A DNA stretch of 64,000 nt from Candidatus Campbellbacteria bacterium (GCA_016699465.1 CP064977.1:74096-138095), one strand, 5' to 3'. Counted from the stretch's first letter, positions 8,440 through 60,549 are shown. Made by a program: numbers and translations. Notes: generated by a model not told the origin, from the sequence alone.

Positions 8440-8545
8440 AGCTTTTATTTTTATGTATAGGACCATAGATACTACACGAAAATATTAAAAAAAGAAATCT
8501 ACACATAGAGAGCATATAGAATAATGTGTTGTCCTTGGTATATGC

Positions 8546-9757
8546 GTGTATACTGTGTATATGCAAAAGACAAAAATTCTCATTCTGTTAACTGTTTTTA
8601 TTGATGTTATCGGATTGGGGATAGTAATTCCTATTTTGCCGTTTTACGTTGCAACATTCACGAATTCAGCGATTATCATGACGTCACTGTTTGCTATGTA
8701 CGCACTTTTTTCATTTTTGAGTGCGCCTGTTATCGGTGCGCTTTCAGATAGAATTGGTCGTCGGCCGATGCTCATTATGAGTATTTTTAGTACGGCGATT
8801 GGGTGGTTTGTATTTGCAGGGGCAACAAATCTTATATTTTTGTTTTTGGGGCGAATTATTGATGGGGTAATGGCTGGTAATTTTCCTATCGCACAAAGTT
8901 ATTTGTCTGATATCGCGCGAGATGAAAAAGAACGCACGGCAAACATGGGGCTCATTGGTGCTGTGTTTGGTATTGGTTTTATTCTCGGACCGTTTCTTGG
9001 AGGAGTGCTGGGTAGTATTGGACACACTGTTCCGTTTTGGTGTGTGGGTGCCCTTGCACTCTTCAACGGAATCCTCGCACTCTTTATCTTGCCCGAAACA
9101 CATCATGTACGAAGTGCGGCACCAATAAGTATTAATCCATTTACACCACTCTCACGTGCAATTCACAACGGTGCGCTCAGAAGTAACTACCTTGCCTGGT
9201 TTCTGTTTGGTTTAGCTATTGCAAGTTACCAAGCCATTTTCTCACTCTACCTCCGAGATGTGTTTCACTTCACTGAATTAACAGGGGGTTTCATTTTTGG
9301 CGCTATAGGTATTATCATCGCGTTAAATCAAGGTGTTGCAATGAAGCATGTGTGGTTGAAATATTTTAAACGGCCCGCACTTGAGCTGGGCACGCTCGCA
9401 GTATTTGCGGTTGGATTTGTGCTGATGGGGATACCGGTCTTCTTTGTGTTTTGTGCCGCGATACTCTTGACGACCGTTGGGCAATCTATTTTGCGGGGGG
9501 TTATGACAAGTCAGGTGGTTGGCAAAACGCCACCGCTTCAGCGTGGGGAAGTGCTTGGTATTATGTCCTCCATTGCATCGCTCAGTATGGTTATTGGGCC
9601 GTTTCTCTCAGGAGCGTTGTATGAAAAAAGTAGTACACTCCCTTTTATGTTTGGTGCACTGTGCGTAGCATTTGCATTTGTTGTGTTGTACATCAAGAGG
9701 CGTGAATTGAGCGATGGTGAATTGCCTGAAGATGTCGTTTTGGAGTCGGTGGTATAG
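8546..9757 (+). CDS. MFS transporter (TetA/drug-H+ antiporter-like)
   Basis: 12 predicted TM helices, MFS motif GALSDRIGRRP between TM2 and TM3; start uncertain (GTG 8546 or ATG 8561). Confidence 0.85.
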   Translation: MYTVYMQKTKILILLTVFIDVIGLGIVIPILPFYVATFTNSAIIMTSLFAMYALFSFLSAPVIGALSDRIGRRPMLIMSIFSTAIGWFVFAGATNLIFLFLGRIIDGVMAGNFPIAQSYLSDIARDEKERTANMGLIGAVFGIGFILGPFLGGVLGSIGHTVPFWCVGALALFNGILALFILPETHHVRSAAPISINPFTPLSRAIHNGALRSNYLAWFLFGLAIASYQAIFSLYLRDVFHFTELTGGFIFGAIGIIIALNQGVAMKHVWLKYFKRPALELGTLAVFAVGFVLMGIPVFFVFCAAILLTTVGQSILRGVMTSQVVGKTPPLQRGEVLGIMSSIASLSMVIGPFLSGALYEKSSTLPFMFGALCVAFAFVVLYIKRRELSDGELPEDVVLESVV

Positions 9758-12670: not shown

Positions 12671-12743
12671 GTGTGATTTTGCGAAATCATATTACGTAGC
12701 GTCGATTGTTACGTGGCTGAGATCGCGATAAACTTTGTGGTTA

Positions 12744-23632: not shown

Positions 23633-23713
23633 TTTAATCAAGAAATTTAAAAATGTACCGATATATCGGTACATTTTTGTTATGGACTAATTCGCGCGAA
23701 TAGGAGAATAGTC

Positions 23714-24047: not shown

Positions 24048-24656
24048 TTAGCGTCTATTAGTAAACGCGCTTTTAATGGTGTCGGCATCGGAATATTCAA
24101 GTTCAGTTCCTGTGGAGAGTCCGCGTCCGAGCATGGAGATAGTAATACCGTTTTCAGTGGTGATAGGTAAGAGAAGTGACTTCACGTGGTCCGCGGTCAT
24201 TTCACCCTCAGGATGTGCTCCTGTGGCGATAATGATTTCTTTGAGGTTTTTGATATTTTTTTGCACGTACTTCGTGAGCTCGTCTGTTTTAAGATTTGAT
24301 GGTGTTGATTCAAGAAGGGGAACGGTTCCTCCAATGACAAAGTAGTGACCGTTGTATGCGTGTGTTTTTTCAATGGCGTCTAGATCGGCATCTTTTTCAA
24401 CCACCATGAGTAGGTGTGTGTCCCGGTTTGGAGATGAACAGATATCACAGACCTCGGCGTAGCCATCTGCATCAAAGAAGCGGTGGCACTGCGCACAGCG
24501 TGAAATAGACGCTTGGAGTTCTTCAATACGCTCAGACAAACTTTTCACAAATGCCTTGTCTTGGGTAAGGAGAAAGTGCACGAAGCGTTTTGCTTGTCGT
24601 GGTCCGATGCCTGGAAATTTTTGAAAGTATTCAGCTAGTTTTTGTATCGCGTTCAT
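24048..24656 (-). CDS. recR: recombination protein RecR
   Basis: MNAIQKLAEYFQKFPGIGPRQAKR HhH N-terminus, C4 zinc finger (CxxC...CxxC), Toprim region; ORF-track start 24743 is an upstream extension. Confidence 0.9.
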   Translation of the reverse strand: MNAIQKLAEYFQKFPGIGPRQAKRFVHFLLTQDKAFVKSLSERIEELQASISRCAQCHRFFDADGYAEVCDICSSPNRDTHLLMVVEKDADLDAIEKTHAYNGHYFVIGGTVPLLESTPSNLKTDELTKYVQKNIKNLKEIIIATGAHPEGEMTADHVKSLLLPITTENGITISMLGRGLSTGTELEYSDADTIKSAFTNRR

Positions 24657-24694
24657 CTTGTACAGTTTAACAAATTTTGATCCACTATGTGTTT

Positions 24695-24722
24695 CTTGAC
24701 AGAAAAAATGTGCGGTATATAA
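24695..24722 (+). promoter_or_regulatory. consensus sigma70 promoter (TTGACA-16-TATAAT) reading towards tRNA-His
   Basis: Perfect -35 and -10 hexamers; followed by a roughly 430-nt ORF-poor leader before tRNA-His. Confidence 0.5.
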
Positions 24723-25153
24723 TGTTTGTAGATTACATTTCAAACGCGTTTATACAGTGGAATAGTAGGAAGTCTTAGTATGGTTTGAGCGAGTTCGGGA
24801 TAGTGTGAGCCGAACCCTGAAGAGATTTTTGAACACGTCACTGGAGCGGTTAGTGAAAAAGCCCAGCAAAGAAGTAGGGCACAAGCTAGACGGTGGTCAC
24901 ACATCGTGAATCTGTAAATTAAGTGTCCGGATATCCTGCATAAGGAGTTCGGGAAAGAGGATGGAACCGCGGGTAGTCATATCTAAAGACTCTCGTTCCT
25001 TTTGTATCGTCGTATATGACGGTGCACAGGGAATGGGAGTTTTTTGCGTTTATGAAAGGAGAAACGCATGGGCTTCACACGAACCCGTCGTTCTTTTGGC
25101 GGAGCAGGTCCGCACTAACAACCTGTACGGAGAGATAATCTCTCCGTACACAT

Positions 25154-25227
25154 GGTGTCTGTAGCTCAATTGGTAGAGCGCTTCTCTGTGGCAGAAGTGG
25201 TTGCGGGTTCAAGTCCCGTCAGACACC
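25154..25227 (+). tRNA. tRNA-His (anticodon GTG) with genome-encoded G-1
   Basis: Acceptor gtgtctg/cagacac preceded by extra G (G-1), anticodon loop cuGUGgc, T-arm gcggg-ttcaagt-cccgt. Confidence 0.9.
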
Positions 25228-25229
25228 CT

Positions 25230-26177
25230 ATGAGCTATAAAAGTAAAAAACAAAAAAATACGCTCAGAAATCGCATTGGTAATAAGATGCGAACATTTAG
25301 AATTGTTCTTTCAAGACTCGCACAGAACGTGCGGTCTCAGCTCAAAGGTCGAAAGGAAAGCAAAATGTCCCTACCACAGACGAGAAAGGTCATGGCATTT
25401 CTTCGAGATGAGGCTCGGCGTATTCGACCCAACAACAAGAGGATTGACGAATGGGTCGATGAACTTCTCGAGCAGTGTGCTCGAGACGGAAAGCCGGTAG
25501 ACGTACTCACCCAGTGGTGTCTGTCGAAAGATCTCGAAACTCGGAAAATACAACAAGGAGGTCGACTTTCACCCCTTCCTTCCGAGAAGAAGATGATCCT
25601 TGAGGCAATTCCGCGCATTATTGATGTTTTCACCAGTAATGGCTTTCGAGTCAACTGGTGGTTCACATTCAACAAGGCGTTTGTGGACGAGGGGCGGGTG
25701 TCTGATGCATTGGTCGTCGAGTATATCAATCTCATCAGTGCCCTCGTTTCCCAAAATGAGGCAGTGCGCGAAAGTGGTATTCTTATCAACTGGGAGGAAG
25801 AAGTGCTCCAAGGTCGACAACAGCCAAATAGAGAAGTTATGGAAGATTTCTTTCGGTACATTCCGAGGGGCGCGTTTGATATCGAGATGAAAAATCTCCT
25901 TCGACGCGTCCAGAAGTACCCCAACTTTTCAAAGTCAGTTGCCGAGCTCGAGGTAGAAAAGAAGTACAACATTGCTTGTGAGGTGGGGGAGGGGAAGTTT
26001 CTCCTCGGCGAGCAATCGCCGTTTTCCAAGGGAGAGTTTCTCCTCATTCCATTTGAATTTCCGGAGCGGTACGGATTTTTCGAGATACTAGCTCCAGGGT
26101 TTCAACGTCGTATTGCTGCAGTACTTAAACCATACCCATGGCGCATAGATGCCGACGATCTGGTGTATGAATCGTAG
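25230..26177 (+). CDS. hypothetical protein (cassette 1), start uncertain
   Basis: ORF immediately after tRNA-His; the track start at 25152 lies inside the tRNA; GC rises to above 55%. Confidence 0.5.
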   Translation: MSYKSKKQKNTLRNRIGNKMRTFRIVLSRLAQNVRSQLKGRKESKMSLPQTRKVMAFLRDEARRIRPNNKRIDEWVDELLEQCARDGKPVDVLTQWCLSKDLETRKIQQGGRLSPLPSEKKMILEAIPRIIDVFTSNGFRVNWWFTFNKAFVDEGRVSDALVVEYINLISALVSQNEAVRESGILINWEEEVLQGRQQPNREVMEDFFRYIPRGAFDIEMKNLLRRVQKYPNFSKSVAELEVEKKYNIACEVGEGKFLLGEQSPFSKGEFLLIPFEFPERYGFFEILAPGFQRRIAAVLKPYPWRIDADDLVYES

Positions 26178-26192
26178 CGGTTCGCACACATA

Positions 26193-26226
26193 AGGCCCGC
26201 TTCGTTTAACACGAAGCGGGCCTTTC
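26193..26226 (+). terminator. terminator hairpin
   Basis: aaggcccgcttcg-tttaaca-cgaagcgggcctt 13-bp stem. Confidence 0.55.
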
Positions 26227-26231
26227 TCTAA

Positions 26232-26268
26232 TAGTATTCAACTAGTTTTTGGATTGCATTCATAAATT
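26232..26268 (-). pseudogene. recR 5'-end remnant (11 codons MNAIQKLVEYY then stop)
   Basis: Reverse complement atgaatgcaatccaaaaactagttgaatac closely matches the true recR start atgaacgcgatacaaaaactagctgaatac; its ATG overlaps the TGA of the 108-aa gene (ATGA). Confidence 0.6.
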
Positions 26269-26586
26269 TTCAAGTGGATAGACGTCGAAGGCAACTTCTT
26301 CGTATGGGTGTACTGATTTCATCGCCGAAATAATATCAAGCATTTTCTCTCTTTCGCAGACAAATTCAATTCGTTCTTCTGGTACAGATTCTAATGTACC
26401 AACTTCACCTATTGCTGGACGCGCTCCGTCTTCAGGTAGAAATCGTCCGGTTCCTTTTGATGAAAAGGTACAGAATGAATAGTTGCCAATTTTTCCTGCG
26501 CCTGCTTTACCTACAGCATCACGAACAACATCGGCGTGTGATTCAGGAACGAACACAACGATTTTTAGTTTTTTTGTTTGAGACAT
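26260..26586 (-). CDS. small alpha/beta protein; C-terminus HPYEEVAFDVYPLE is CutA/PII-like (weak)
   Basis: 108-aa ORF, GC-rich; translationally coupled (ATGA) to the recR-like remnant. Confidence 0.5.
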   Translation of the reverse strand: MSQTKKLKIVVFVPESHADVVRDAVGKAGAGKIGNYSFCTFSSKGTGRFLPEDGARPAIGEVGTLESVPEERIEFVCEREKMLDIISAMKSVHPYEEVAFDVYPLENL

Positions 26587-26632
26587 GCGACTATTTTAGC
26601 AGATTTTTAGGGCTATTTGGGGTAACTTGACA
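26587..26632 (+). repeat. cassette-array repeat, copy 1 (46 bp promoter-proximal part ending in TTGACA)
   Basis: gcgactattttagcagatttttagggctatttggggtaacttgaca; same sequence at 28286-28332 and 29046-29091. Confidence 0.85.
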
Positions 26633-26656
26633 AGTGGTAATAATATATAGTATAAT
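26627..26656 (+). promoter_or_regulatory. sigma70-like promoter TTGACA-18-TATAAT for cassette 2
   Basis: The -35 box is contributed by the repeat; the -10 box by unique cassette sequence. Confidence 0.55.
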
Positions 26657-26719
26657 ATCTAACAGAAGCTCATCACCAGATCAGCCGTAATGGTTGGTCA
26701 AAACCGAAGGAGAAAAATC

Positions 26720-27256
26720 GTGAAGAAGATTTTCTCATTTGACGCCGAGACCAACGGACTCTGGGGACAGGCGTGGGCGATCGGCGCCCTCGTCTACGAC
26801 GAGAACGGCGTTGAAATTGCCCGATTCGTCGGCCGTCTGCCGGACTCGGCGGTGACCGACTCGTGGAGCCGGGAGAACACTCTGCCCCAGGTGCAGGGAA
26901 TCCCGGTGACCCATGAGGACTACGACTCGCTTCTCGCCTCGTTCGCCGACTTCTACAAGGCGAACAAGGACGGAGCCGACGTCGTCGTGCACATGGGGTA
27001 CATCGTGGAGGCGAAGATTCTTCGTGATCTCCACGATCGCGGCCTTATCGGCGACTGGGAGGGGCCGTACCCGCTCTACGACGTCAGCGGAAACCTGCAG
27101 GCCGCTGGTGCGGACCCCACCTCGGTGGACAAGTTCGCGGACGAGCGAGGTCTTCAGGTGGGAGTGGGTACCGACATCGTCGGAGGAACCCACAATCCGC
27201 TCTGGGATTCTGCCGCCGCGGCGGCAGTCTACCGCTACTTGGTCTACGACAAGTAG
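26720..27256 (+). CDS. DEDDh-family 3'-5' exonuclease (DnaQ/RNase T-like)
   Basis: AAGGAG SD 7 nt before GTG 26720; motif I FDAETNGL, motif III HNPLWDSAAAAAVY (H-x4-D); GC about 62%. Confidence 0.8.
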   Translation: MKKIFSFDAETNGLWGQAWAIGALVYDENGVEIARFVGRLPDSAVTDSWSRENTLPQVQGIPVTHEDYDSLLASFADFYKANKDGADVVVHMGYIVEAKILRDLHDRGLIGDWEGPYPLYDVSGNLQAAGADPTSVDKFADERGLQVGVGTDIVGGTHNPLWDSAAAAAVYRYLVYDK

Positions 27257-27296
27257 CAACGTGGGAGTTTGAGAGGACTCCGTCAACAAAACCTCT

Positions 27297-27346
27297 CCCA
27301 TCGTAGAATGTGTGTTCTACCCGATGAGTCCAAAAGGACGAAATGG
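27297..27346 (+). ncRNA. hammerhead-ribozyme-like motif (type III topology) with U4-to-C deviation; speculative
   Basis: cccaUC | GUAGAA-ugugug-UUCUAC | CCGAUGA | GUCC-aaaa-GGAC | GAAA | UGG: 14 of 15 core positions and all three stems present. Stem III is only 4 bp and competes with an upstream hairpin (gugggag/cucccau). Confidence 0.2.
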
Positions 27347-27364
27347 TTTGTTCTTTGAGAAAAT

Positions 27365-27420
27365 TCTTTCGGTTATCTCAGTGTTTGTGATTTGAAGAGA
27401 GCGTTGAGATAACCGAAAGA
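27365..27420. promoter_or_regulatory. perfect 16-bp-stem hairpin immediately upstream of the SD of the 27435 gene
   Basis: tctttcggttatctca ... tgagataaccgaaaga, exact reverse complements; A-run after, T-rich before. Confidence 0.5.
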
Positions 27421-27434
27421 AAAAAGGAGATACT

Positions 27435-28148
27435 ATGCAAAGGAAAAAAATTGAAGTGAAGAAAGGGAAGTACGCCTTTCTTGTTGACGGACTCAGAAAA
27501 GAGCCCATCAACTTTCTGCGGCATGAGCCGCTGAATGAGATTGAAATCTTACTTGGCAAGGGAGCCAAGAGTGTCGAGTACTACGGCACTTTCGGGGGAG
27601 AGGACGGGGTTCTCCTTCTAGTAGTTGAAGTGTCGTCGGATGGACCAGTTATCACAGAAGGTGGTAATCTCTTCGCGTTCTGCAAAGGGTGCGGAGAACT
27701 CATTCGGAGCGAGCACGGGTGTGTCAGAGGGTCTGATGAACCGTGCAAGGAGAAGTTCCGGTCGGGAACAAGCTTTCTCACCGCCCCGCTGGATCACCCT
27801 TGTGCCGCTCTCTACCACGCGGCACAGGACGGAAAGTTCTTGGTCGGGATTGACAACCCGATGCGAGTTCCAGATGTGCCGAGTTGGGTCTTGATTCAAA
27901 ACAGAAAGACCCACGGCGGTGGTCACCATTATCACTGGTTTGGTCGCTCTGGACTTAGTCCAGAGGGTCTCGCAGACTTCTTTCGGAGGCATCCTGCCAG
28001 TGACGCCGAAGTATCTCTCGAAGGAGAGGTTGTGGTGGTCAAATCATCACAACTCGGACCGTGGATTGGTTCGAGTGGACGTTGGGCGAAGGCCTACCAA
28101 CGTCTTGGAATTCGAGTTCAGTTTCGACCAGTTGTAGCCACCGCCTGA
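27435..28148 (+). CDS. hypothetical protein (cassette 2, second gene) with CxxC/His clusters
   Basis: AAGGAGA SD; 237 aa; GC about 58%; no family recognised. Confidence 0.55.
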   Translation: MQRKKIEVKKGKYAFLVDGLRKEPINFLRHEPLNEIEILLGKGAKSVEYYGTFGGEDGVLLLVVEVSSDGPVITEGGNLFAFCKGCGELIRSEHGCVRGSDEPCKEKFRSGTSFLTAPLDHPCAALYHAAQDGKFLVGIDNPMRVPDVPSWVLIQNRKTHGGGHHYHWFGRSGLSPEGLADFFRRHPASDAEVSLEGEVVVVKSSQLGPWIGSSGRWAKAYQRLGIRVQFRPVVATA

Positions 28149-28332
28149 TGAAACACGGGAGACCGCGCTTTCATCAGGCGGTTTTCTTATTTTTATTTTT
28201 TGAATCTACTCCACTATTCGCGCGAATTAGAGAATGGTTTTTTGGAGCTTTTGAAAGTATTCAGTTAGTTTCTGAATTGTATGCATGCGACTATTTTAGC
28301 AGATTTTTAGGGCTATTTGGGGTAACTTGACA
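28141..28332 (+). repeat. cassette-array repeat, copy 2 (terminator hairpin + recR-5'-like segment + TTGACA)
   Basis: About 93% identical over about 190 bp to 28903-29091; hairpin ccgcctgatgaaa...tttcatcaggcgg plus T-run acts as terminator for the upstream gene. Confidence 0.85.
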
Positions 28333-28408
28333 AAACAAATTATTTTTGCTAAAAAACAGATAGAACACAACATACGCTACTTGGCGTATGAACTTTTGGA
28401 GAAAAATC

Positions 28409-28885
28409 ATGAAACTGTTCCGAGGTGTGCTTATCGTCTTGACGGTAGCGTTGGTTTTCCAGGCCCTTCTCACTGTCTACAAGCATCACAAAAAGGCGGA
28501 GCAGCTGGAGAGGTTTGTGGCCGCAGAAGCGTTGGACGCGGCCGCCTCACTTGCAAACGCTCTGGAAGCCACTTATTACCAGGACGGAGGACTCGATTCT
28601 GTTGTGACCACGTGTGCCTCATCGGAGATCACCTGGACGAAGACGACACACGGGGAGTTCACAACCCGATGCAACGTCACCGGAGATTTCTACGACCCGG
28701 ACACGTACAAGACGATTACGGACGGAAAAGACACAATCCTTCCAGTGAGTCTTTTCACGAGAGTCGACGAGAGGATGCTCGTTCGACTCAAGGATGGTTG
28801 GAGGTTGCGGAGCGCCACCCTTACAGTGCTCGCGGAAGACGCCCGAGGTCGGGTGCTTGCCAAGGCGAGCAAACACCTTCGGTAG
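28409..28885 (+). CDS. hypothetical secreted/membrane-anchored protein (cassette 3)
   Basis: GGAG SD 7 nt before ATG 28409; signal/TM LFRGVLIVLTVALVF; GC-rich. Confidence 0.5.
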   Translation: MKLFRGVLIVLTVALVFQALLTVYKHHKKAEQLERFVAAEALDAAASLANALEATYYQDGGLDSVVTTCASSEITWTKTTHGEFTTRCNVTGDFYDPDTYKTITDGKDTILPVSLFTRVDERMLVRLKDGWRLRSATLTVLAEDARGRVLAKASKHLR

Positions 28886-28902
28886 TGGGCATTCAATCTC
28901 TG

Positions 28903-29091
28903 CCGCCTGACAGACACGGAAAACCGCGCTTTGTCTGGCGGTTTTCTTATTTTTATTTTTTGAATCTACTCCACTATTCGCGCGAATTAGAGAATGGTTT
29001 TTTGGAACTTTTGAAAGTATTCAGCTAGTTTCTGGATTGTATGCATGTGACTATTTTAGCAGATTTTTAGGGCTCTTTGGGGTAACTTGAC
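28903..29091 (+). repeat. cassette-array repeat, copy 3
   Basis: Hairpin ccgcctgacagac...gtctgtctggcgg carries compensatory substitutions relative to copy 2; ends in TTGACG -35 with TATACT -10 17 nt downstream. Confidence 0.85.
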
Positions 29092-29164
29092 GTGGGACGA
29101 TTTATGACTTATACTTTTTACGGAACCGAACGAAAGAACAACTTCGACTCAGGAGGCCGAGACA

Positions 29165-29494
29165 ATGGCGACTCAAGGGGTGGTAAGTGTCGTGAAGAAC
29201 GGGGTGGTGGTGCTCAAGGTTGTCGCAGGCTGCGATGGTTACAACGCGGCCCTGCTCGGCAACACGATTCGGGGAATGGGAATCATTCCAGATGCGGAGA
29301 ACGCCTACGACCTGGCGTTCAAGCTCCGTTTCGGCGAGGTCGAGTGCCTCGTCGCGATGGACCAGAGGACCGAGGTGTTTCGGGGTCACGACGAGATCGA
29401 CTCGACGAGGTATCGAGCCACCTTCAGCGACCCGCGCTTCAACCCAAGGTGGGAGCAGGGAACCGCCGACTTCGTGGAGGTGGTCGAGTTCTAG
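29165..29494 (+). CDS. hypothetical protein (cassette 4), 109 aa
   Basis: GGAGG SD; GC about 62%; antisense ORFs rejected. Confidence 0.5.
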   Translation: MATQGVVSVVKNGVVVLKVVAGCDGYNAALLGNTIRGMGIIPDAENAYDLAFKLRFGEVECLVAMDQRTEVFRGHDEIDSTRYRATFSDPRFNPRWEQGTADFVEVVEF

Positions 29495-29528
29495 AATCAA
29501 CACGATGACCCAGAACGAGCTGAACTAT

Positions 29529-29660
29529 ACCGTCTGACAAACACGGAAAACCGCGCTTTCATCAGGCGGTTTTCTTATTTTTATTTTTGAATCTACTCCA
29601 CTATTCGCGCGAATTAGAGAATGGTTGCCGGGGAATTTCTGAAAATATTCAGTTGTCTTA
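29529..29660 (+). repeat. cassette-array repeat, copy 4 (degenerate)
   Basis: Terminator hairpin plus ttgaatctactccactattcgcgcgaattagagaatggtt shared with copies 2 and 3, then a diverged recR-like segment (gaatattttcagaaattcc). Confidence 0.7.
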
Positions 29661-29732
29661 ATTAAATTTTACAAAAAGAAACCGCCTCGTCTGGGAACGG
29701 GACGGTTCCATGTGACGGGGCGGGGGCAGGTG

Positions 29733-30212
29733 CTACTGCGGGGTTGGGAGCGAAATTGGCGCAGTTCGGTTGACCTGCATCGTGCGGCGCATCCACCACT
29801 CGTCCAGGATGATCTGGACCATACCGCGCTCTCGCTTGCCCGCGACCATTTGCGCTATGGGTGCGAGTGTTCGAATGTCGCGGTGTTCGCGCTGGCCGTC
29901 GGACCACTCGATGAGTACCTCTGTGAACGACGGGTTGTGCTCGTAGCGATCCACGACCCAGAAAATCTCATTGTAATCGGTGATGCAGGTGGCGGGAAGC
30001 TCGACGGTTTTGAGCAGCTCCAGCATCTGCTCTTCGTGCACCTTGCGCTCTGTCGCGGTTCGCGCCTCTTCGGCGTCGGCGGACTTGGAACCAGACGTGT
30101 CCCCGATGAGCATGAAAAGGCTGAAGACGATGATGCATCCGAGGATGAACCCGAAAACGAGGTTCATCCGTTTCGCTGACATGAACTCTCTCTCAGTAAA
30201 GAGGCGCTCCAT
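29733..30212 (-). CDS. hypothetical membrane-anchored protein, GC-rich
   Basis: Own promoter TTGACT-17-TATCAT at 30258-30286 (minus strand) and GAGGAGG SD. Confidence 0.5.
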   Translation of the reverse strand: MERLFTEREFMSAKRMNLVFGFILGCIIVFSLFMLIGDTSGSKSADAEEARTATERKVHEEQMLELLKTVELPATCITDYNEIFWVVDRYEHNPSFTEVLIEWSDGQREHRDIRTLAPIAQMVAGKRERGMVQIILDEWWMRRTMQVNRTAPISLPTPQ

Positions 30213-30298
30213 GTTGAACCTCCTCGGCCGATGGCCTGTAGGTACGTATTTTCTGGAGAGGATGATACTATAAAATCACAAAAAAGTCAACTGACAAA

Positions 30299-30679
30299 TT
30301 ATTCGAGGATATCAGGAATATGAGAACGGGGAACTTTGCGAACATTTACTTTCTCCATTTTTAGAATTGACGCTTTCATGAGGCGGTGTAGTCCGTCTAA
30401 GATTAGCCAACGGCCTTTATTCTCCATAATGTCTATTGGATGTATGAGGTCTGCGTTCATGGTGCGCTCGTACTCTTCTTTGTGCGCGTCAGGATTGGTC
30501 AGGACTTCCTGGGGCGTAAGATTATAGACGCCGTTTTCCCAAAGGAATGGAATATCGAAGTGCCATGTAAGTTCGCTGGTAGGTATTTCTTCAACAGGGA
30601 CATCAAGAGCCCACACCTTTGGTTCACTCCAATCAAAATCAAATCCAACGTCTTTAATTATTTGTGGAATATCACCCAT
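30299..30679 (-). CDS. hypothetical protein with ParB/Srx-like DGxHR motif (ILDGLHRL)
   Basis: 126 aa; motif typical of the ParB-like nuclease superfamily; assignment weak. Confidence 0.4.
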   Translation of the reverse strand: MGDIPQIIKDVGFDFDWSEPKVWALDVPVEEIPTSELTWHFDIPFLWENGVYNLTPQEVLTNPDAHKEEYERTMNADLIHPIDIMENKGRWLILDGLHRLMKASILKMEKVNVRKVPRSHIPDILE

Positions 30680-30750
30680 GTTCTGATTATTTTTGTATTA
30701 TATAAAAAAGTGCCTGACTCCATTGTCCACATTTTTTATTTCGCACATCG

Positions 30751-31485
30751 TTAAAGTACCCCTTTGTTTTGCAATTCCATTACAAAAAACTTACCTTTTT
30801 CACTGAAATCAATTGTCAGCTGTCCGCCCACTTTATCTTTTCGTATAAGTCCTATAACGTCAAGTTTTGAGAAGTAATTAGGATTTAAGTATTCATCGTA
30901 CGGATGAGATGGGCTTGTCGAGTATTTACCGCCATATTGATAAATAATTTGGTTTGCTTTTTTGAGTGCCTCAATATTTTCGGGGTTATAAGAGAATTTT
31001 TTTAGTTCATCCAACCAAGCGACCATGGGATTGCTTTTTTTTATTTGTTTTTCTTGCTTAGTTGTTTTTGCAACCACCTCAATTTTTTTTGCGCGCTGTT
31101 CTTCGAGTGCAGTTTTTTCTTCCTCAATCTTCCTTTTTTCTAGAATACTTATGATAGTTTTTTTTGACTCATACTCCTCATTTTTTCTGTGTGCTTTTAT
31201 AAGAAACAATTCAGGAAATGTCCAAATTACTAAAAATGTTAATAAGAAAGGTAGCGCCCAAAGGCAGACGCTTATTATAGGATGTGTAGGATCTAATAAA
31301 AGATTCTGAAGATATTCTGTTTTTAAAAGTCCTTTAGATTCCCAGATTTTTTCCTCACTTAGAAAGAAAAGAGCAACCATAAATTTCCAATGGATGATTA
31401 TGGAAGATATTAGAAGTGTCCCATAAAATGGGCTTGAAAATCTCTGCTCGACCATCTTTTTTATTGATTCAAAAATTTCTGTCAT
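30751..31485 (-). CDS. hypothetical membrane protein with coiled-coil segment
   Basis: ORF-track start 31830 would overlap dnaB; first in-frame ATG after dnaB stop is at 31485. Confidence 0.5.
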   Translation of the reverse strand: MTEIFESIKKMVEQRFSSPFYGTLLISSIIIHWKFMVALFFLSEEKIWESKGLLKTEYLQNLLLDPTHPIISVCLWALPFLLTFLVIWTFPELFLIKAHRKNEEYESKKTIISILEKRKIEEEKTALEEQRAKKIEVVAKTTKQEKQIKKSNPMVAWLDELKKFSYNPENIEALKKANQIIYQYGGKYSTSPSHPYDEYLNPNYFSKLDVIGLIRKDKVGGQLTIDFSEKGKFFVMELQNKGVL

Positions 31486-31495
31486 GTTTTTGTTT

Positions 31496-32923
31496 CTAAA
31501 ACTCCGCACTTGTTCCTTGAGCGGAAGCGTCGAATTGCTCAACACCGTGGCGTTCAAGTGAACGGAAGGTGGCTTTCTTGTCGTCAAAGTAGAGTTCGAG
31601 CACACCCGTTGGACCGTTACGGTGCTTGGCGATGATGAGTTCCACAATGTTTGAGCGCTCACCAGCTTCTTTGTAGCGGTCTTCACTGTGAATAAACATA
31701 ACCAAGTCAGCGTCCTGTTCAATAGAACCAGAGTCACGAAGGTCGGAGAGTTGTGGTCGTCCACGGCGCTGTTCAATGGCACGTGAAAGCTGTGAGAGGG
31801 CAACGACAGGCACGTCGAGCTCGCGGGCAAGCTGTTTCAGTGAGCGGGAAATTTCGGTCACTTGTTGCACCATGTTGTCTTGCTGGCGGTTTTTACCTGA
31901 TGGAACCATGAGCTGGAGGTAGTCTACAATGATGAGGTCGAGACCTTGCTCACTCTTGAGACGGCGGGCAACAGAGCGCATTTTCAAAATGTTGTTGCCC
32001 GCCTGGTCGTCGATGAATATTTTTGCTTGCGAGAGTTTGTTTGTGGCATCACTAATGCGTTCAAATTCGTCGTCGGTGGAAAGTTTTCCTGTGCGCAAAC
32101 GCCACGCATCCACTTGTGCCTCTGATGCAAGCATGCGGTCTACTAATTGCTGTGCACTCATTTCAAGAGAGAAGATACCAACGGATTTGCCGTAGCGAAT
32201 AGAGGAGTGGCGTGCAATGTCCAATGCGAGGGACGTCTTTCCCATGGAAGGTCGTGCGGCGAGAATGACGAGGTCTGCTTTTTGAAGTCCTGCGATTTTG
32301 TTGTCCAACTCTGGAAAACCTGTTGGCACACCGCGGAGTGTTCCTGAAGATTTTTGCAATTTGTCCAAGCGTTCAAACGCATCGGCGAGCACGTCACTGA
32401 TGGGAATAAATTTCTTTGTTCCTGGGGCAGACGTGATGTTGTAGATTTGCTTCTCCGCTTTATCAAGTAACTCTTCCAACTCTTCTTCTTCGGCAAAGCC
32501 GAGTTCGGTGATGTGGTAGGCGGCTTCAATCAACTGGCGCATCGTGTACTTCTTTTGCACAATTTCAGCGTAGTGCTTTGCGTTCATGGATGAGGGCACC
32601 GTGTCCACCAAGCCAGTGAGGTAGCTCATGCCACCAACCGTCTCTATTTCTTTGAGTTCTTTGAGTCGAGAGGAGAGTGAAACAAGATCAATCGGTTCTC
32701 CTTTTTTGTAGATGTCGAACATCGCGGAAAAAATAATTCCGTGTTTGCGTGCATAAAATGATTCTGCTGAGAGAATATCAATGACGTCGTGCACTGCTTC
32801 AGGACGCAACAAAATAGAACCGAGAAGTGCTTTCTCTGTCTCCACATCTGATGGTGGTGTGCGAACTGGTTTTGTTTGAGGGTGAGTTGCCATGAATATC
32901 TGCATAGTAGCATACGAAAACAA
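31496..32923 (-). CDS. dnaB: replicative DNA helicase DnaB
   Basis: Walker A GARPSMGKTSLAL, DnaB N- and C-terminal domains; exact start (TTG 32923 or ATG 32893) uncertain. Confidence 0.9.
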   Translation of the reverse strand: MFSYATMQIFMATHPQTKPVRTPPSDVETEKALLGSILLRPEAVHDVIDILSAESFYARKHGIIFSAMFDIYKKGEPIDLVSLSSRLKELKEIETVGGMSYLTGLVDTVPSSMNAKHYAEIVQKKYTMRQLIEAAYHITELGFAEEEELEELLDKAEKQIYNITSAPGTKKFIPISDVLADAFERLDKLQKSSGTLRGVPTGFPELDNKIAGLQKADLVILAARPSMGKTSLALDIARHSSIRYGKSVGIFSLEMSAQQLVDRMLASEAQVDAWRLRTGKLSTDDEFERISDATNKLSQAKIFIDDQAGNNILKMRSVARRLKSEQGLDLIIVDYLQLMVPSGKNRQQDNMVQQVTEISRSLKQLARELDVPVVALSQLSRAIEQRRGRPQLSDLRDSGSIEQDADLVMFIHSEDRYKEAGERSNIVELIIAKHRNGPTGVLELYFDDKKATFRSLERHGVEQFDASAQGTSAEF

Positions 32924-47019: not shown

Positions 47020-48420
47020 CTACTCTTTTTTCTTTAAAACGGACAATCCAAGATCTCTCAAAACAATTGGATCAATTGGTCCCGGAGCATGCATGACGGC
47101 GGTCTTTCCTTTTCCTGTCATAGGAAACGCCTGCACTTCGCGCAGGTAGGATTCACCTGTGGCAATCATGACACCGCGTTCAATACCCAATCCAATACCA
47201 CCGTGTGGAGGAACTCCGTGTGAAAAAGCCTCAAGCATGTGGCCTACACTGTCTTTAATTTGCTCAGGTGTGTACCCCATGATTTTGTACGTTGCCTCAA
47301 GAATTTCTGGTCGGTGTGCACGAATACTTCCCCCTCCTGTTTCAAATCCGTTACAGACGAGGTCATACTGCTGTGTGACAATGTTTTCAATGTTTTCACC
47401 CTTCATGTGTGATTCGAGGTGATCTTCTCGTGGCATTGAAAAAGGGTTGTGGGTAAATGTCCATTTGCCGTCGTCGGTTTTTTCAAAGAATGGAAAGTCA
47501 GTTACCCAGGCGTACGCAAGAATCCCCTTCTCTTTTTCTTCTGGTGTGCGCATATCAAACTTATCTGCACCATACGTTTTCATGGCTTCTGCATAGGTGA
47601 TACGTGGAAATGGTTTTTGTTTGATGGTCTTACCCAAACTTTCCATGACAAAGGTAATCATACCTTCGATGGTATCCATGACTTCGTCACGTGTGACGAA
47701 TGACATTTCAAAGTCGAGTTGTGTGTGTTCATATCCACGGTCGGCACGAAGGTCTTCATCACGCACACATCGTGCAAGTTGAAAATACTTTTCAAAACCA
47801 GAAGTCATTAAGAGTTGCTTGTACTGTTGTGGTGATTGTGGCAATGCATAAAAGTTTCCTGGGGCGTGACGAGATGGTACTAAGAAGTCACGAGAACCTT
47901 CTGGTGTTGATTGTGTGAGGAGTGGTGTTTCGATTTCAACAAATCCCTGCTTAAACAAGTATTCACGACACTTCTGCACAAACTCACTTCGGATGCGAAT
48001 ATTTTTTTGCATGCGGGCAGAGCGGAGGTCTACATATCGGTATGCTAGTCGCGTTTCCTCATTGAGTCCCATGGTGTCTTGTGTCAAATCAAACGGAGGA
48101 GTCGTTGCTTCTGCAAGAACGGTAATTGATTCAGCGACACACTCGAGTGCACCGTTTTGTTCACCTTCATTGACAAGATTATCAGGACGTTTTTTGATGA
48201 GTCCTGTAAGTGTGATAACCCATTCAGACCTAAGAGTGTTTGCGACAGCGAGTGCCTCGGCATTTTTAGGCGTTACAACCACCTGCACCTTCCCGGTCTC
48301 ATCACGAACATCAATAAAAATAAGCTTTCCATGGTCGCGTCGTACGGAAACCCAACCTGCAATCGTAATACTACTGTCAATATGTTTTTCGAGGTCTTGT
48401 ATGTAAATACGGTTTTTCAT
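47020..48420 (-). CDS. aspS: aspartate--tRNA ligase, short form without GAD insertion domain
   Basis: Class-II motifs including FRDEDLRADR and GGIGLGIER-like; 466 aa. Confidence 0.9.
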   Translation of the reverse strand: MKNRIYIQDLEKHIDSSITIAGWVSVRRDHGKLIFIDVRDETGKVQVVVTPKNAEALAVANTLRSEWVITLTGLIKKRPDNLVNEGEQNGALECVAESITVLAEATTPPFDLTQDTMGLNEETRLAYRYVDLRSARMQKNIRIRSEFVQKCREYLFKQGFVEIETPLLTQSTPEGSRDFLVPSRHAPGNFYALPQSPQQYKQLLMTSGFEKYFQLARCVRDEDLRADRGYEHTQLDFEMSFVTRDEVMDTIEGMITFVMESLGKTIKQKPFPRITYAEAMKTYGADKFDMRTPEEKEKGILAYAWVTDFPFFEKTDDGKWTFTHNPFSMPREDHLESHMKGENIENIVTQQYDLVCNGFETGGGSIRAHRPEILEATYKIMGYTPEQIKDSVGHMLEAFSHGVPPHGGIGLGIERGVMIATGESYLREVQAFPMTGKGKTAVMHAPGPIDPIVLRDLGLSVLKKKE

Positions 48421-48512
48421 ATGTGTTCAAGTATATAGGTTTTGTGCCCATTTCCAAAGAGGATAAAGTAACCTAAAAAATGTAAAACCGCCGGACCTTT
48501 CTCAAGGCCGGC
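48277..48512. repeat. 236-bp direct repeat, copy A (aspS 5' end and its upstream terminator)
   Basis: Identical except 1 nt to 52349-52584. Confidence 0.9.
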
Positions 48513-48546
48513 GGTCAGAATCACGGTAGTTCCTCAGTACCGTGAC

Positions 48547-52348: not shown

Positions 52349-52584
52349 AACCACCTACACCTTCCCGGTCTCATCACGAACATCAATAAAAATAAGCTTT
52401 CCATGGTCGCGTCGTACGGAAACCCAACCTGCAATCGTAATACTACTGTCAATATGTTTTTCGAGGTCTTGTATGTAAATACGGTTTTTCATATGTGTTC
52501 AAGTATATAGGTTTTGTGCCCATTTCCAAAGAGGATAAAGTAACCTAAAAAATGTAAAACCGCCGGACCTTTCTCAAGGCCGGC
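52349..52584. repeat. 236-bp direct repeat, copy B
   Basis: See copy A. Confidence 0.9.
52352..52489 (-). pseudogene. aspS 5' fragment (46 codons then stop; duplicated with the repeat)
   Basis: Encodes [45 protein letters not shown] then TAG where real aspS continues. Confidence 0.8.
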
Positions 52585-52662
52585 GGTCGAAACCATAACG
52601 GTTTCGCAGTACTGTGGTTAGCTGTGGCGACTAAAAACTGCAATCTGCAAGTAAACCGAAAT

Positions 52663-53310
52663 CTACGACCTTGCGTCTCGAACGAGCTGCGACACGATGG
52701 CGTCTGGAACATCCCCGAACGAATCGTAGAACATTCCCGTCGCGGGTGCTGATGAGAGGGTCGATTGGCGCCAGAAGATGATCTCGTCGACCATGATATC
52801 CGAGGACTTGAGATCCCGCGGAATCACTGGAACAGCGAGAACAATCTCCTTCACACCGAAACGACGTCGCAGCATGAGTGAAGCGGCCAGAGCCGTCCTG
52901 CCGCTGACGATCCCATCGTCACAGAGCAGAACCTTCTCCCCGACCTCAAACGACTCGCCGTTGTAGAGATGCTGACGCTGATGTGCTTTCTCCAGGAGCT
53001 GGTTTGCCCCGGGTATCTTGAGTGTCGAGACGTTTTGAATGTACATCAGCCGCAAGGGCTGCAGGTTCTCCATCTCAACCAACACACCCTCACCGAACGG
53101 AGTCACGATCAATTGGAAGGATTTTCCGTCTCCCATATCGTCGACGACGAGTGCGTTGAGAGAGATACCTGCGTCGGTAGCGATGCGCGCCGCGATAGGT
53201 ACTCCTCCTCGTGCCAGACCAACGGCGACGAAACTCGAAACGTTCGGAAGGTCCTGCAGGACTTCAGCGCTCAGCTTTGCTGCGGCGTCCGTCCGATCTA
53301 CAAAAAACAT
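52663..53310 (-). CDS. type I phosphoribosyltransferase domain protein
   Basis: PRPP-binding motif VLLCDDGIVSGRT. Confidence 0.7.
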   Translation of the reverse strand: MFFVDRTDAAAKLSAEVLQDLPNVSSFVAVGLARGGVPIAARIATDAGISLNALVVDDMGDGKSFQLIVTPFGEGVLVEMENLQPLRLMYIQNVSTLKIPGANQLLEKAHQRQHLYNGESFEVGEKVLLCDDGIVSGRTALAASLMLRRRFGVKEIVLAVPVIPRDLKSSDIMVDEIIFWRQSTLSSAPATGMFYDSFGDVPDAIVSQLVRDARS

Positions 53311-53336
53311 CTCTCTCCCCCCTTTTTTCTAAAAGG

Positions 53337-53365
53337 AAAGGAGGGGCTCGTCACCGAGCCCCTCC
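53337..53365 (-). terminator. terminator for the GC-rich gene upstream of the PRTase gene
   Basis: ggaggggctcg-tcac-cgagcccctcc followed on the minus strand by a T-rich tract. Confidence 0.55.
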
Positions 53366-53392
53366 GGAGTTGTCCTCTGCCGACCGGTGTCG

Positions 53393-53737
53393 CTAGCAGG
53401 AGGAGATGTGGTCGCTGGCCGCGGTCTTCTTGATGCGATCGAGGTCCAGGCCGATGTAGGTGGCGAGCCGCTGGGCGCCGTCGGCGATCACGTGGTTGGC
53501 GATCGAGACGGCGAGCAGCTGCACGCCGGGACGGGCGTGGACGGGGATCGGTTGGCCTGCCAACTGCGCCCGAACGATCAGAGCCGAGTGACCGAGGGCC
53601 TGCTCGGCGGCCGCGTGCTTGTCGAGCCCGTTGGCCTGGAAGTCCCACTCCATCCCGCACTTGTGGATCGGATAGCGCGGATCGATGTTCTTGGTAGCCG
53701 GGACTTCCGGCTTGTGCCCCGCGTTGGACTTCGTCAT
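53393..53737 (-). CDS. GC-rich hypothetical protein (114 aa)
   Basis: GGAGAG SD; GC about 64%; alternative frames give Arg-rich junk and are rejected. Confidence 0.5.
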   Translation of the reverse strand: MTKSNAGHKPEVPATKNIDPRYPIHKCGMEWDFQANGLDKHAAAEQALGHSALIVRAQLAGQPIPVHARPGVQLLAVSIANHVIADGAQRLATYIGLDLDRIKKTAASDHISSC

Positions 53738-54079
53738 GGTGAGTCTCTCCCTGTGACAAGGACCGTCGAGATTGACGTCCGTTTGGAATGCTAGCATGTC
53801 TAATATATTCTGTCAAGTACTCCGGAACGATGTAACAAAGAGCAAAAATTTAGCATTGTTAGTCCCGATTTCAATAGACTAAATAGAAACGGCGCCGCGA
53901 TGACTTCGTCTTGGCTGAGTCGGTTGACTTGGTCAGGCCCAGCGGAGACGTTTTCTTCAGAGAAGGTGGAACCATAAAAAATAAAATTATTCCTGCAACG
54001 TACCTAAAAAGCCACAAAAGAAAACCCCAACCCAACGCATCTTTATAAAGATGTGTATACATAGAGTGTGTACCTTATA

Positions 54080-58644: not shown

Positions 58645-58984
58645 ATACATGCAACAAACAGTCACATGGTTTTTCTTTGAGAATTATCCTCTGTTCTTTG
58701 ATAGTGTTGATGAACACTTTTTGACTACCAGAACCAGTTGCTAATCGTTTATCAAGTGGTGTGTGGTGTTGGTATCCTCGGCGAGAGAATTCTTTTACCA
58801 ACGCTTCATGGCGTGTGTAGAGCGCCTTTTTCTTTCCTACCCAACGCAGTGTTTCTGGATGATGTGCGTACCCACCCTTCCCTTTGTGTTTTGTGAGAAT
58901 GTTCCATAGACCATGAAGCTCGCGATGTTCGGCGAGCAAATGTTTTCTGCATAAATGTTGTGGATGTATGTCCCAAACGCGCAT
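58643..58984 (-). CDS. pyrimidine-dimer DNA glycosylase (T4 endonuclease V / DenV family)
   Basis: N-terminus MRVWDIHPQHLCRKHLLAEHRELHGLW parallels T4 DenV MTRINLxxxxELxDQHLLAEHRELPRIF. Confidence 0.75.
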   Translation of the reverse strand: MRVWDIHPQHLCRKHLLAEHRELHGLWNILTKHKGKGGYAHHPETLRWVGKKKALYTRHEALVKEFSRRGYQHHTPLDKRLATGSGSQKVFINTIKEQRIILKEKPCDCLLHV

Positions 58985-59001
58985 GCGATTCTGCAGAATC
59001 G

Positions 59002-59030
59002 CGCCACGTACTGTTGATTGTTACGTGGCG
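59002..59030 (-). promoter_or_regulatory. conserved palindromic element CGCCACGTA-N11-TACGTGGCG upstream of the denV-like gene
   Basis: 9-bp inverted repeat; related copies at 59961-59989 and a half-site at 59047-59060. Confidence 0.45.
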
Positions 59031-59544: not shown

Positions 59545-59943
59545 TTATTTAAGTGCAGTAAGTATGAAGTATGCAATAACGCTTGTGAGTGCAGTAACTA
59601 GTACTCCCCACCCCATATCAATGAGTGTCATAGACGTAGGCCATCCAGCAATAGTTGCATGATTGGTGAGATCGTATGCACCGTATGCGACGAGTCCCAA
59701 GAGTGCCCCTCGCCAGAGTGCTTCAATCCAGGATGCAGATGAAATAGCCGGCATAACTGCGAGTAGGAGTACACCAAGTGCATAGAGAGGATAAAAGAAC
59801 GCGACCGGAATGAGGTTGATTGATTTGCTAAAAAGAAATCCCATGTGTTCTGCATAAAACTTTTTTGCCAACACAAGAATCCAGAGTGCATCAAGTGCAG
59901 TGAGTGGTAACAGTGTTGCAAGATAGGCTAGGAGTGTTTGCAT
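59545..59943 (-). CDS. membrane protein (DUF2177-like)
   Basis: Start moved to MQTLL (59943) because the longer start would overlap the conserved palindromic element. Confidence 0.5.
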   Translation of the reverse strand: MQTLLAYLATLLPLTALDALWILVLAKKFYAEHMGFLFSKSINLIPVAFFYPLYALGVLLLAVMPAISSASWIEALWRGALLGLVAYGAYDLTNHATIAGWPTSMTLIDMGWGVLVTALTSVIAYFILTALK

Positions 59944-59979
59944 ACGATTTAGTGAAATCGCGCCGTGTATCATCAATTG

Positions 59980-60393
59980 TTACGCGGCGGAATTTAGGTA
60001 CGTTATGGTTAGTTGTAATGTTGTCGCGAAAGAAACCCAGAGAAGATATGGAATATTCGCGTACACAATCCAGCGTAAATCTGCTGAAGCGTGCCAGAGT
60101 GACCATAGTGCCCAAATCAATGTTGCGAGCACAAGCAGCACGTCCACTGCCGCGAGAAGGTTGTTCCTTAGACCAAACTGGAGTGGTGTAAATGCAAAAT
60201 TAAAAACAAGATTGAGTGCGAATGGTAGCGCAATCATCCAAGGAAGTTGTTTAGTGAATGCTTTGTAGAATACGGTACTGAACGTAACTGCAATAATTGC
60301 GTACAAAAAAGTCCACGCTGGGCCAAAGAGCCAACTCGGTGGCGCCCATGATGGTTTGATTAACGTTGAGTACCAGGTGTAGGTTGGATTCAT
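59980..60393 (-). CDS. tspO: TspO/MBR tryptophan-rich sensory protein
   Basis: IKPSWAPPSWLFGPAWTFLY N-terminal signature, five TM helices. Confidence 0.8.
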   Translation of the reverse strand: MNPTYTWYSTLIKPSWAPPSWLFGPAWTFLYAIIAVTFSTVFYKAFTKQLPWMIALPFALNLVFNFAFTPLQFGLRNNLLAAVDVLLVLATLIWALWSLWHASADLRWIVYANIPYLLWVSFATTLQLTITYLNSAA

Positions 60394-60549
60394 ATGTGAT
60401 TGAGTACAATCATGCCGTGAGGCCGATGTAACAAAATTAGATTATTACGTGACCTCATTCTAGCACTTTTTGTAAGAAAAGTTTTTAATTTCAAAAATGT
60501 AAAGAGCCCCAGCAACTGTGCTGGGACTCGGATGTCCGAATGCGTCGGA
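60394..60549. repeat. 156-bp terminator+promoter+5'UTR module, copy A (upstream of tspO)
   Basis: About 95% identical to 63315-63465; contains hairpin cccagca-actg-tgctggg, extended -10 TGcTAGAAT (minus strand) and GTAACA-N9-TGTTAC palindrome. Confidence 0.85.

Follow-up and report, generated by a model that had tools for sequence, protein, structure and literature searches.

Elements of the SXT/R391 type are among the closest described counterparts of the locus reported here: SXT is ~100 kb long, encodes its own tyrosine integrase and recombines at one attP/attB core (PMC2791158). In this work, we analyzed a 64,000-nucleotide (nt) stretch of DNA from a Candidatus Campbellbacteria bacterium (CP064977.1:74096-138095; "the window" always means this whole stretch). 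The window has a GC (guanine-cytosine) content of 42% and belongs to a genome of the Candidate Phyla Radiation (CPR); it contains an array of small gene cassettes beside recR, in which the repeats between cassettes include copies of the recR promoter and gene start. As in the case of SXT/R391 at prfC, insertion is at the 5′ end of a housekeeping gene, the gene start is directly repeated and the incoming DNA would restore promoter and first codons; unlike in that system, the units measure 0.6-1.7 kb, no integrase was found in the screened open reading frames (ORFs) and the junction positions vary. The direct repeat of the gene start matches at 29 of 29 nt in a closely related contig (L067) and at 31 of 39 in the window, where similarity ends at recR nt ~30 in one copy and ~47-51 in others. 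The recR gene itself is intact, with a new promoter directly upstream and the older promoter and 5′ copies stranded.

Duplicated homology flanking an insert is also produced by Campbell-type integration, unequal crossing-over and homology-facilitated illegitimate recombination in naturally transformable bacteria, most of the knowledge of these processes coming from laboratory constructs and transformation experiments. They involve one homologous and one illegitimate junction, may act at any locus and change array size through the repeats. Here, likewise, a direct duplication flanks the insert, the pattern occurs at more than one locus, and a sister strain differs by whole repeat-bounded units. 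To our knowledge, such recombination has not been described as a builder of ordered, promoter-bearing cassette arrays in CPR genomes.

Sedentary chromosomal integrons (Vibrio VCR) and integrase-less attC clusters share with this locus arrays of small ORFs of unknown function and similar repeats of 100-200 nt, but here the cassettes have their own promoters and terminators and the repeat copies a host promoter and gene start. No integrase domain that would point to intI was present in the screened flanking ORFs, and Rfam gave nothing attC-like. A 28-nt palindromic motif of the array has the same length and 11-6-11 layout as the sites of Xer/dif modules (IMEX, pdif) and brackets small genes in other contigs (L037, L038, L048), but it is also found within the reading frame of intact genes. 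A dif site of the chromosome was rejected for this locus, since there is no GC-skew switch there. Tandem-accreting islands (tRNA-remnant arrays, tycheposon-like islands) target the 3′ ends of tRNA or tmRNA genes and carry integrases. As in those islands, nested partial target copies mark successive arrivals at one hotspot, but here a protein-coding gene is targeted, at its 5′ end, and the screened ORFs gave no integrase. The array is a variant of known target-duplication and island-accretion phenomena, in a CPR genome.

Copies of the recR 5′ end

When the first 39 nt of recR, whose start reads ATGAACGCGATACAAAAACTAGCTGAATACTTTCAAAAA, were compared without gaps with every position on either strand of the window (127,924 positions), three strong matches emerged, all on the minus strand: 29008-29046 (32/39), 28248-28286 (31/39) and 26225-26263 (31/39). 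Similarity to the true recR is far above chance: the best unrelated position, next after the three copies, reached 25/39, the background had a mean of 10.2 and a standard deviation of 2.9, and the binomial expectation for at least 31 matches of 39 was 6e-7. A repeat search of the window returned the same family. There is also a fourth, partial copy at 29627-29662, corresponding to about recR nt 7-47. The similarity to recR extends to about nt 47-51 in copies 2-4 and only to about nt 30 in copy 1. The features are as follows.

24048-24656, minus strand: recR, 202 aa, intact
24657-24723, minus strand: current recR promoter (TGTTAAACT, -10 at 24664-24669), placed by alignment to relatives
24740-26231, plus strand: module with putative T-box leader 24740-25003, tRNA-His 25155-25228, 315-aa ORF 25230-26177 and terminator hairpin 26194-26229 (Rfam, ARAGORN)
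26228-26263, minus strand: copy 1, relic of recR nt 1 to ~30; the yqfO stop overlaps its ATG as ATGA
26260-26586, minus strand: yqfO, 108 aa, NIF3 insert domain (PDB 2gx8 at 1e-34; named "YqfO family protein" by the sources)
26587-26633, minus strand: repeat 1a, recR-type leader/promoter (TGCTAAAAT, 6 nt, ATG), now predicted to drive yqfO
28138-28333: repeat 2, with hairpin and T-run, motif 28208-28235, relic 28240-28286 (minus), leader/promoter and -35 hexamer 28287-28333
28898-29093: repeat 3, parts as in repeat 2, with motif 28968-28995, relic 29000-29046 (minus), leader and TTGACG 29047-29093
29525-29662: repeat 4, distal end of the array, with hairpin, motif 29595-29622 and relic 29627-29662 (minus), without leader
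28208-28235, 28968-28995 and 29595-29622, plus strand: the 28-nt motif in the array, abutting the relic at the same position in repeats 2, 3 and 4
23682-23709, minus strand: fourth copy of the motif in the window, on the downstream side of the recR operon and opposite in orientation to the copies in the array

We regard recR as intact because Pfam finds its RecR_HhH, Toprim and RecR_C domains. The product is 97% identical to that of an uncultured metagenome-assembled genome (L001), and its best named relatives are Campbellbacteria and Paceibacteria. The original prediction, made from the sequence alone, saw in each array repeat a coding-sequence mimic of the recR N-terminus. Its translations of the three copies were accurate (MNAIQKLVEYY and a stop for copy 1; MHTIQKLTEYFQKLQKTIL and MHTIQKLAEYFQKFQKTIL, each followed by a stop, for copies 2 and 3), as was the overlap of the 108-aa gene's stop with the ATG of copy 1. 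The word mimic, in turn, has to be given up: the repeat segments hold recR's own promoter together with the gene start, and we therefore take them as copies rather than convergent look-alikes.

The promoter identity of the leader comes from several observations. It aligns with genuine recR upstream regions of relatives, and TGnTAAAAT, a spacing of 5-6 nt and ATG are common to repeats 1a, 2 and 3, the true recR and the relatives L001, L003 and L004; such an extended -10 so close to the start codon predicts a leaderless-type recR promoter. As had been proposed, one leader precedes both the 108-aa gene and copies 2 and 3 (26565-26633 is 88% identical to 28265-28333 and 81% identical to 29025-29093), and TGTCAAG stands about 38 nt before the ATG, at 38-39 nt in the true recR and the copies alike. 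Read as its reverse complement, this sequence gives the -35 hexamer of a sigma70 promoter on the plus strand. A promoter scan placed such promoters at 24696-24723 (12/12), 26627-26656 (12/12) and 29087-29115 (10/12); the first is back to back with the minus-strand recR promoter, and repeat 1a terminates in the shared plus-strand -35 hexamer TTGACA.

In the direction of recR, repeats 2 and 3, which share 96% identity across 158 nt, begin with the -35 hexamer of the divergent cassette promoter, continue with the recR-type leader and recR nt 1 to ~47, and then pass into CAACC and the 28-nt motif. They close with an A-run and a GC-rich hairpin, and this hairpin serves the preceding plus-strand cassette as terminator. 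The relic of repeat 4 runs in frame into the motif (...EYFQKFPG-NH-SLIRANSG), and the hairpin beside this motif is a hybrid. That repeat 4 had once been a live recR with the motif in frame was rejected, as none of the 120 best RecR matches carries the motif; FPGIGPRQA(K/R)RF is near-invariant among the RecR matches inspected, with no MHTIQKLTEYFQK start found. The recR part of the relics is about equally distant (31-33/38) from the recR of the window and from those of L001-L003, and the relics begin with ATGCA (Met-His), as in L002 and L003. Judging from their sequence, the copies are decaying pseudo-5′ ends, each consisting of a presumably dead recR promoter and the first 10-16 codons.

The dnaB-recR junction and its inserts

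In 30 of 30 related genomes recovered through RecR, recR comes after dnaB in the same orientation, and in none of them is yqfO present at the locus. The 6.8 kb between the two genes in the window (24657-31495) are therefore inserted material. The gap is 19-145 bp in L004, L006 and L007, and 0.6-2.3 kb have been inserted in L001, L002, L003 and L005. Most of the genes inserted in L001-L003 are GC-rich, divergent from recR and preceded by TTGAC-type promoters, with GC-rich hairpins at the ends, and the insert of L005 is a low-GC gene on the recR strand. Thus, insertions of variable size at this junction were found in the lineage, where the original prediction had suggested looking for them; a second copy of the recR 5′ end was sought in the 30 relatives and none was found.

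A closer comparison is offered by L067, a Logan contig of 36.7 kb that is 94% identical across window positions 24049-26632. Its order is dnaB ... MazG with its own terminator, cassette 3 (the cassettes are listed in the last section), TTGACA and leader, yqfO, ATGA, recR nt 1-29, a hairpin, the T-box/tRNA-His/315-aa module and recR. The relic after yqfO starts at the recR ATG and matches the true recR at 29 of 29 nt; these 29 bp are the only direct repeat in that region, with the copies 1596 nt apart and bounding the module. Such a perfect relic indicates that yqfO had at one time been in translational coupling with an intact recR, before the 1.6-kb module entered at recR nt ~29 and brought a new promoter and start. 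Both the coupling and the insertion of the module, shared with the window at 94% identity and joined there to recR at about nt 29-31, would predate the split between the window and L067, to judge from the shared arrangement. The coupled gene pair that had been called ancestral can accordingly be placed in the recent ancestor of these two, but not further back, given the 30 of 30 relatives with dnaB next to recR and no yqfO.

Repeats 2-4, cassettes 1 and 2 and the motif at the recR site are missing from L067. The units absent are exactly those between the leader of repeat 3 and the leader of repeat 1a, and the window-specific material starts directly after the shared leader and ATG and ends with leader and ATG. 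Since the added units begin and end in this way, a single crossover in the leader/5′ homology is suggested; the difference is of the kind that recombination between leader repeats would produce, whether by gain or by loss.

The reading that we favor, although we grant it no better than an even chance, is that the relics mark successive insertions at the dnaB-recR junction, brought about by homology-driven duplication-insertion and unequal crossing-over without a dedicated integrase. Each added unit would be a self-contained, mostly GC-rich cassette traveling joined to a recR promoter and 5′ end, probably from a related strain in which the cassette already stood beside recR. On the recR side, recombination would be homologous, through ~50-100 nt of leader and 5′ coding sequence, and presumably of the RecA type, probably fed by DNA uptake. 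The far junction alone would need illegitimate recombination, and that once, at its founding: in repeats 2-4 it may have linked recR nt ~47 to the palindrome and a terminator, and in copy 1 recR nt ~29-31 to a terminator. As a result, the old promoter and 5′ end would be stranded as a relic, and the incoming copy would keep recR intact and expressed. With two copies present, the array could grow or shrink by unequal crossing-over or by Campbell-type integration and excision between units, the incoming DNA being a circle, a misaligned sister or imported DNA; the reverse exchange would delete the units between leader repeats. The order of events given here is likewise the probable one. Nested remnants, stranded where an insertion supplies a replacement recR 5′ end, had been foreseen in the original prediction; this idea is largely borne out, and the variable inserts of the relatives and the 29-bp repeat of L067 agree with it.

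The same pattern of duplication occurs at two other places in the window. At aspS (47020-48420), a 268-nt unit at 48277-48544, which combines a terminator hairpin, the region upstream of aspS and the first ~144 nt of the gene, recurs at 52349-52616 with 96% identity, and the two copies flank 3.8 kb of inserted genes that include a 56%-GC gene for a 411-aa membrane protein. At the third locus, a 156-nt upstream region (60394-60549 and 63313-63468, 94% identity) ends exactly at the start codon; it precedes TspO-like and PepE-like genes and includes the terminator of a 67%-GC gene (60563-61330). As the sequences duplicated at these loci are unrelated, they favor general recombination over an att site specific to recR. 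Moreover, no attP-bearing element was recognised, and no integrase or recombinase domain was detected in the 9 ORFs of the insertion zone and 10 other ORFs of the window; a general homology-driven process is favored because of this negative screen, the differing junction positions and the two similar loci. A further GC-rich block (52663-53816) lies beyond the second aspS copy.

Several points weigh against this explanation. The difference between the window and L067 fits a gain in the window or a loss in L067 alike, the recombinase screen covered only part of the window ORFs (the 9 and 10 already mentioned), and the available homology, 29-95 nt at ~80-100% identity, comes close to the minimum for exchange of the RecA type. 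Both the 29/29 repeat of L067, with its start placed precisely on the ATG, and the nt ~47 junction, found repeatedly beside an 11-6-11 palindrome, resemble products of a site-specific enzyme. Additionally, no donor was found with an MHTIQKL-type recR start or with this leader directly on recR.

The 28-nt motif and the rival explanations

The 28-nt motif (ATTCCACTATTCGCGCGAATTAGAGAAT) has the conserved core ATTCCACTATT-CGCGCG-AATTAGAGAAT, with one arm of the 11-6-11 layout conserved and the other variable; fully palindromic variants exist. The 21-mer CACTATTCGCGCGAATTAGAG gave 31 exact matches in metagenome contigs (L031-L061), with unrelated flanks. Motif copies bracket ArsR-like helix-turn-helix (HTH) genes in such a way that one copy provides the stop codon and another stands 30-60 nt 5′ of the start, and arrays of same-orientation copies around small genes occur in L038 (five copies), L037 and L048 (three each). 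Within intact genes (GuaA, PpsA-like, RsmI and several HsdS) the motif invariably reads SLIRANSG, or FSNSxELE in its palindromic form. Compared with solved homologues, GuaA and the PpsA-like protein have at most a one-residue gap across the motif, which therefore replaces native IRxxxG-coding DNA without added length. Downstream of the recR operon the motif is found also in L005 (4008-4035) and L067 (13676-13703), so that it persists there in three genomes in which the adjacent genes vary. It is absent at copy 1, at the aspS duplication and at the third duplication.

No recombinase or integrase recurs near the 31 metagenome loci of the motif, scans of viral contigs for the motif and for the leader found nothing, no ArsR-like gene was found in the window and its relatives, and literature searches on integrons or gene cassettes of CPR bacteria, on uptake sequences and on the motif itself returned nothing relevant. 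The indel-free overwriting of coding DNA resembles uptake sequences. A DNA uptake sequence was nevertheless rejected as the main reading because the motif is too sparse: 513 kb of other loci hold 2 copies, and these adjoin the recR operon downstream (L005, L067). The motif could be an ArsR-like operator, a recombination site or a self-spreading sequence, and its strongest association, with ArsR-like HTH genes, suggests the first.

If the palindrome were instead the working site of a recombinase encoded elsewhere (Xer, integron or another tyrosine or serine type), cassettes would enter and leave there, and the recR promoter and 5′ piece would be a passenger that joined the inter-cassette unit once and has been copied along since. 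We consider this rather unlikely. Such a site would account for the fixed position of the motif against the relic in repeats 2, 3 and 4, for the layout with one conserved and one variable arm, for the arrays that bracket single small genes in other CPR contigs, for the copy that stays downstream of recR while its neighbours change, and for the hybrid hairpin next to the motif in repeat 4. However, no recombinase accompanies the motif elsewhere, its seamless presence inside intact GuaA and PpsA-like genes would be odd for an attachment site, the association with ArsR-like genes points rather to an operator, three duplications (copy 1, aspS and the third locus) lack it, and the exonuclease cassette moves without it. 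On a broader view, CPR genomes may hold an undescribed capture and shuffling of single-gene cassettes without a cassette-borne integrase, in which highly conserved GC-rich genes, equipped with promoter and terminator, would be inserted at housekeeping 5′ ends (recR, aspS and others) with a portable replacement promoter and 5′ end, and the dispersed palindrome would serve as recombination or recognition site; this is doubtful, and a small probability is kept for such a novel site-specific system mainly because of the motif. An integrative element whose attP copies the recR 5′ end, the agent proposed in the original prediction, is quite improbable as well, even with the integrase lost or placed elsewhere and with SXT/R391 at prfC as a model. 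The perfect 29-bp repeat that flanks the 1.6-kb module of L067 from the recR ATG onwards would suit it, as would a replacement promoter and 5′ codons at each event with recR remaining intact. It fares badly with the screened ORFs, none of which encodes an integrase, with one- or two-gene cassettes of merely 0.6-1.7 kb, with a crossover at nt ~30 in one case and ~47 in another instead of at one point, with the lack of a recR relic in all 30 relatives, and with analogous duplications at aspS and another locus.

The copies might also have been retained for a function, as spare recR promoters firing antisense into the cassette terminator, as short-peptide ORFs or as regulator decoys. The extended -10 and ATG are intact in repeats 1a, 2 and 3, and the repeat also provides the -35 hexamer of each cassette promoter; but the short ORFs stop at different places, one is frameshifted relative to repeat 4, copy 1 has diverged, L067 does without copies 2-4, and the conservation (96% between repeats 2 and 3) is what recent duplication would give. 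We therefore hold a retained function to be very unlikely. An assembly artefact, in which cassette alleles of coexisting strains had been strung together through shared flanks, would be suspected in any array of near-identical repeats of 158-196 nt, and the short-read contig L062 does break inside the repeats on both sides. Still, L062, a Logan contig obtained independently, agrees with 26604-28191 at 100% identity and reaches into the repeats on either side; repeats 2 and 3 hold a junction of MHTIQKL-type relic and motif that is not derivable from repeat 4 plus repeat 1a; and the principle of the relic is seen independently in L067. Such an error is extremely unlikely, and from these matches we consider the array real.

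At this locus one can read how foreign genes enter a minimal, host-dependent CPR genome beside an operon of essential function and leave that operon unbroken; each arriving unit supplies, besides its own promoter and terminator, an extra start for the gene next to it. If homology-driven duplication-insertion is correct, DNA uptake from close relatives would be what drives the turnover of accessory genes in these uncultivated bacteria; if the palindrome is an active site, it would belong to a new recombination system. In either case, relics of this kind are practical markers for insertion hotspots and for the order of events in metagenome-assembled genomes.

Cassettes, module genes and minor observations

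Every cassette has its own sigma70 promoter and terminator and is transcribed away from recR. The cassettes and the rest of the insertion zone are the following.

26627-28184, plus strand: cassette 1, with promoter, 178-aa DEDDh exonuclease gene (predicted) 26720-27256, 237-aa ORF 27435-28148 and terminator hairpin
28409-28885, plus strand: cassette 2, 158-aa ORF, GC-rich, no family match
29165-29494, plus strand: cassette 3, 109-aa ORF, present also in L067, directly beside the yqfO leader
29733-31495, minus strand: rest of the zone up to dnaB, with a 159-aa GC-rich ORF, a 126-aa ORF and a 244-aa low-GC ORF
31496-32923, minus strand: dnaB, ancestral upstream neighbour of recR

Searches of Pfam, NCBIfam, PHROGs and PADLOC with the cassette proteins returned no family match. 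The genes of cassette 1 have 53-62% GC. Its 178-aa protein adopts an Orn/RNase T fold in the AlphaFold 2 (AF2) model (predicted local distance difference test, pLDDT, 88.5; Foldseek TM-scores ~0.6), with invariant D-x-E and H-x4-D motifs, and according to this model it is a DEDDh exonuclease of the oligoribonuclease/RNase T fold. The cassette has 540 homologues in several Paceibacteria classes, with 65-83% identity against 45-70% for RecR, and in other Paceibacteria it sits at other loci (L063 8001-8519, L065 8001-8522), where it has its own TTGACA-17-TATAAT promoter, no recR pieces and no motif. A conservation far above that of RecR, together with the differing loci and the consensus promoter of its own, suggests recent horizontal spread. 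A cassette protein is 99% identical to IPJ70_00575 (NCBI, Candidatus Campbellbacteria bacterium); for RecR, YqfO and the 158-aa and 109-aa cassette proteins, no exact-protein record was found. Between the two genes of cassette 1 there is a long, near-perfect inverted repeat (27360-27425), which gave spurious mir-101 matches on both strands. In L063 (Yonathbacteria), a 115-nt direct repeat (8516-8630 and 8890-9004, 93% identical), composed of a terminator and a second imperfect palindrome, stands between the small genes that come after the exonuclease cassette; repeat-separated cassette arrays thus exist elsewhere with unrelated linkers.

The gene yqfO is common in CPR genomes, and in other lineages it stands after secA or an HD-domain gene. 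It had been described as GC-rich, which its measured GC content of 41% contradicts. In the module next to recR, the putative T-box leader, which follows the sigma70 promoter at 24696-24723, matches Rfam RF00230 over its full length (1-219) with 65.5 bits, below the gathering score of 93, and E = 5e-13. Its apparent specifier is that for His (CAC); in the fold of minimum energy, GAA-CAC-G falls within the basal internal loop, on the 3′ side. A hisS 5′ remnant was sought after the T-box, and no PDB match was obtained. The ATG of the 315-aa ORF (MSYKSKK...) is at 25230, 2 nt past the 3′ end of tRNA-His. Its family is small (55 clusters), and homologues also appear adjacent to a tRNA gene. The AF2 model (pLDDT 92.8) is closest to the isonitrile synthases PvcA/IsnA, to the cores of class I Tyr/Trp-tRNA synthetases and to cyclodipeptide synthases, with TM-scores of ~0.45-0.5 to these folds. 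A putative T-box governing a tRNA gene and an enzyme resembling an aminoacyl-tRNA synthetase would be an unusual combination.

Closer to dnaB, the 126-aa ORF (30299-30679, minus strand) is ParB/Srx-like, with a DGxHR motif, and is conserved in L067. An ORF of 359 aa can be read at 30751-31830 on the minus strand, but its first ~115 codons are an artefact, being an alternative frame of the dnaB 3′ end, and it matches relatives solely within this dnaB-derived part; the real gene, at 30751-31485, encodes ~244 aa, has a low GC content and gives weak PHROG matches. Elsewhere in the window, a 46-nt sequence (TGTGATTTTGCGAAATCATATTACGTAGCGTCGATTGTTACGTGGC) is present in three copies (12672-12717, 58984-59029 and 59943-59988) that are 67-74% identical.

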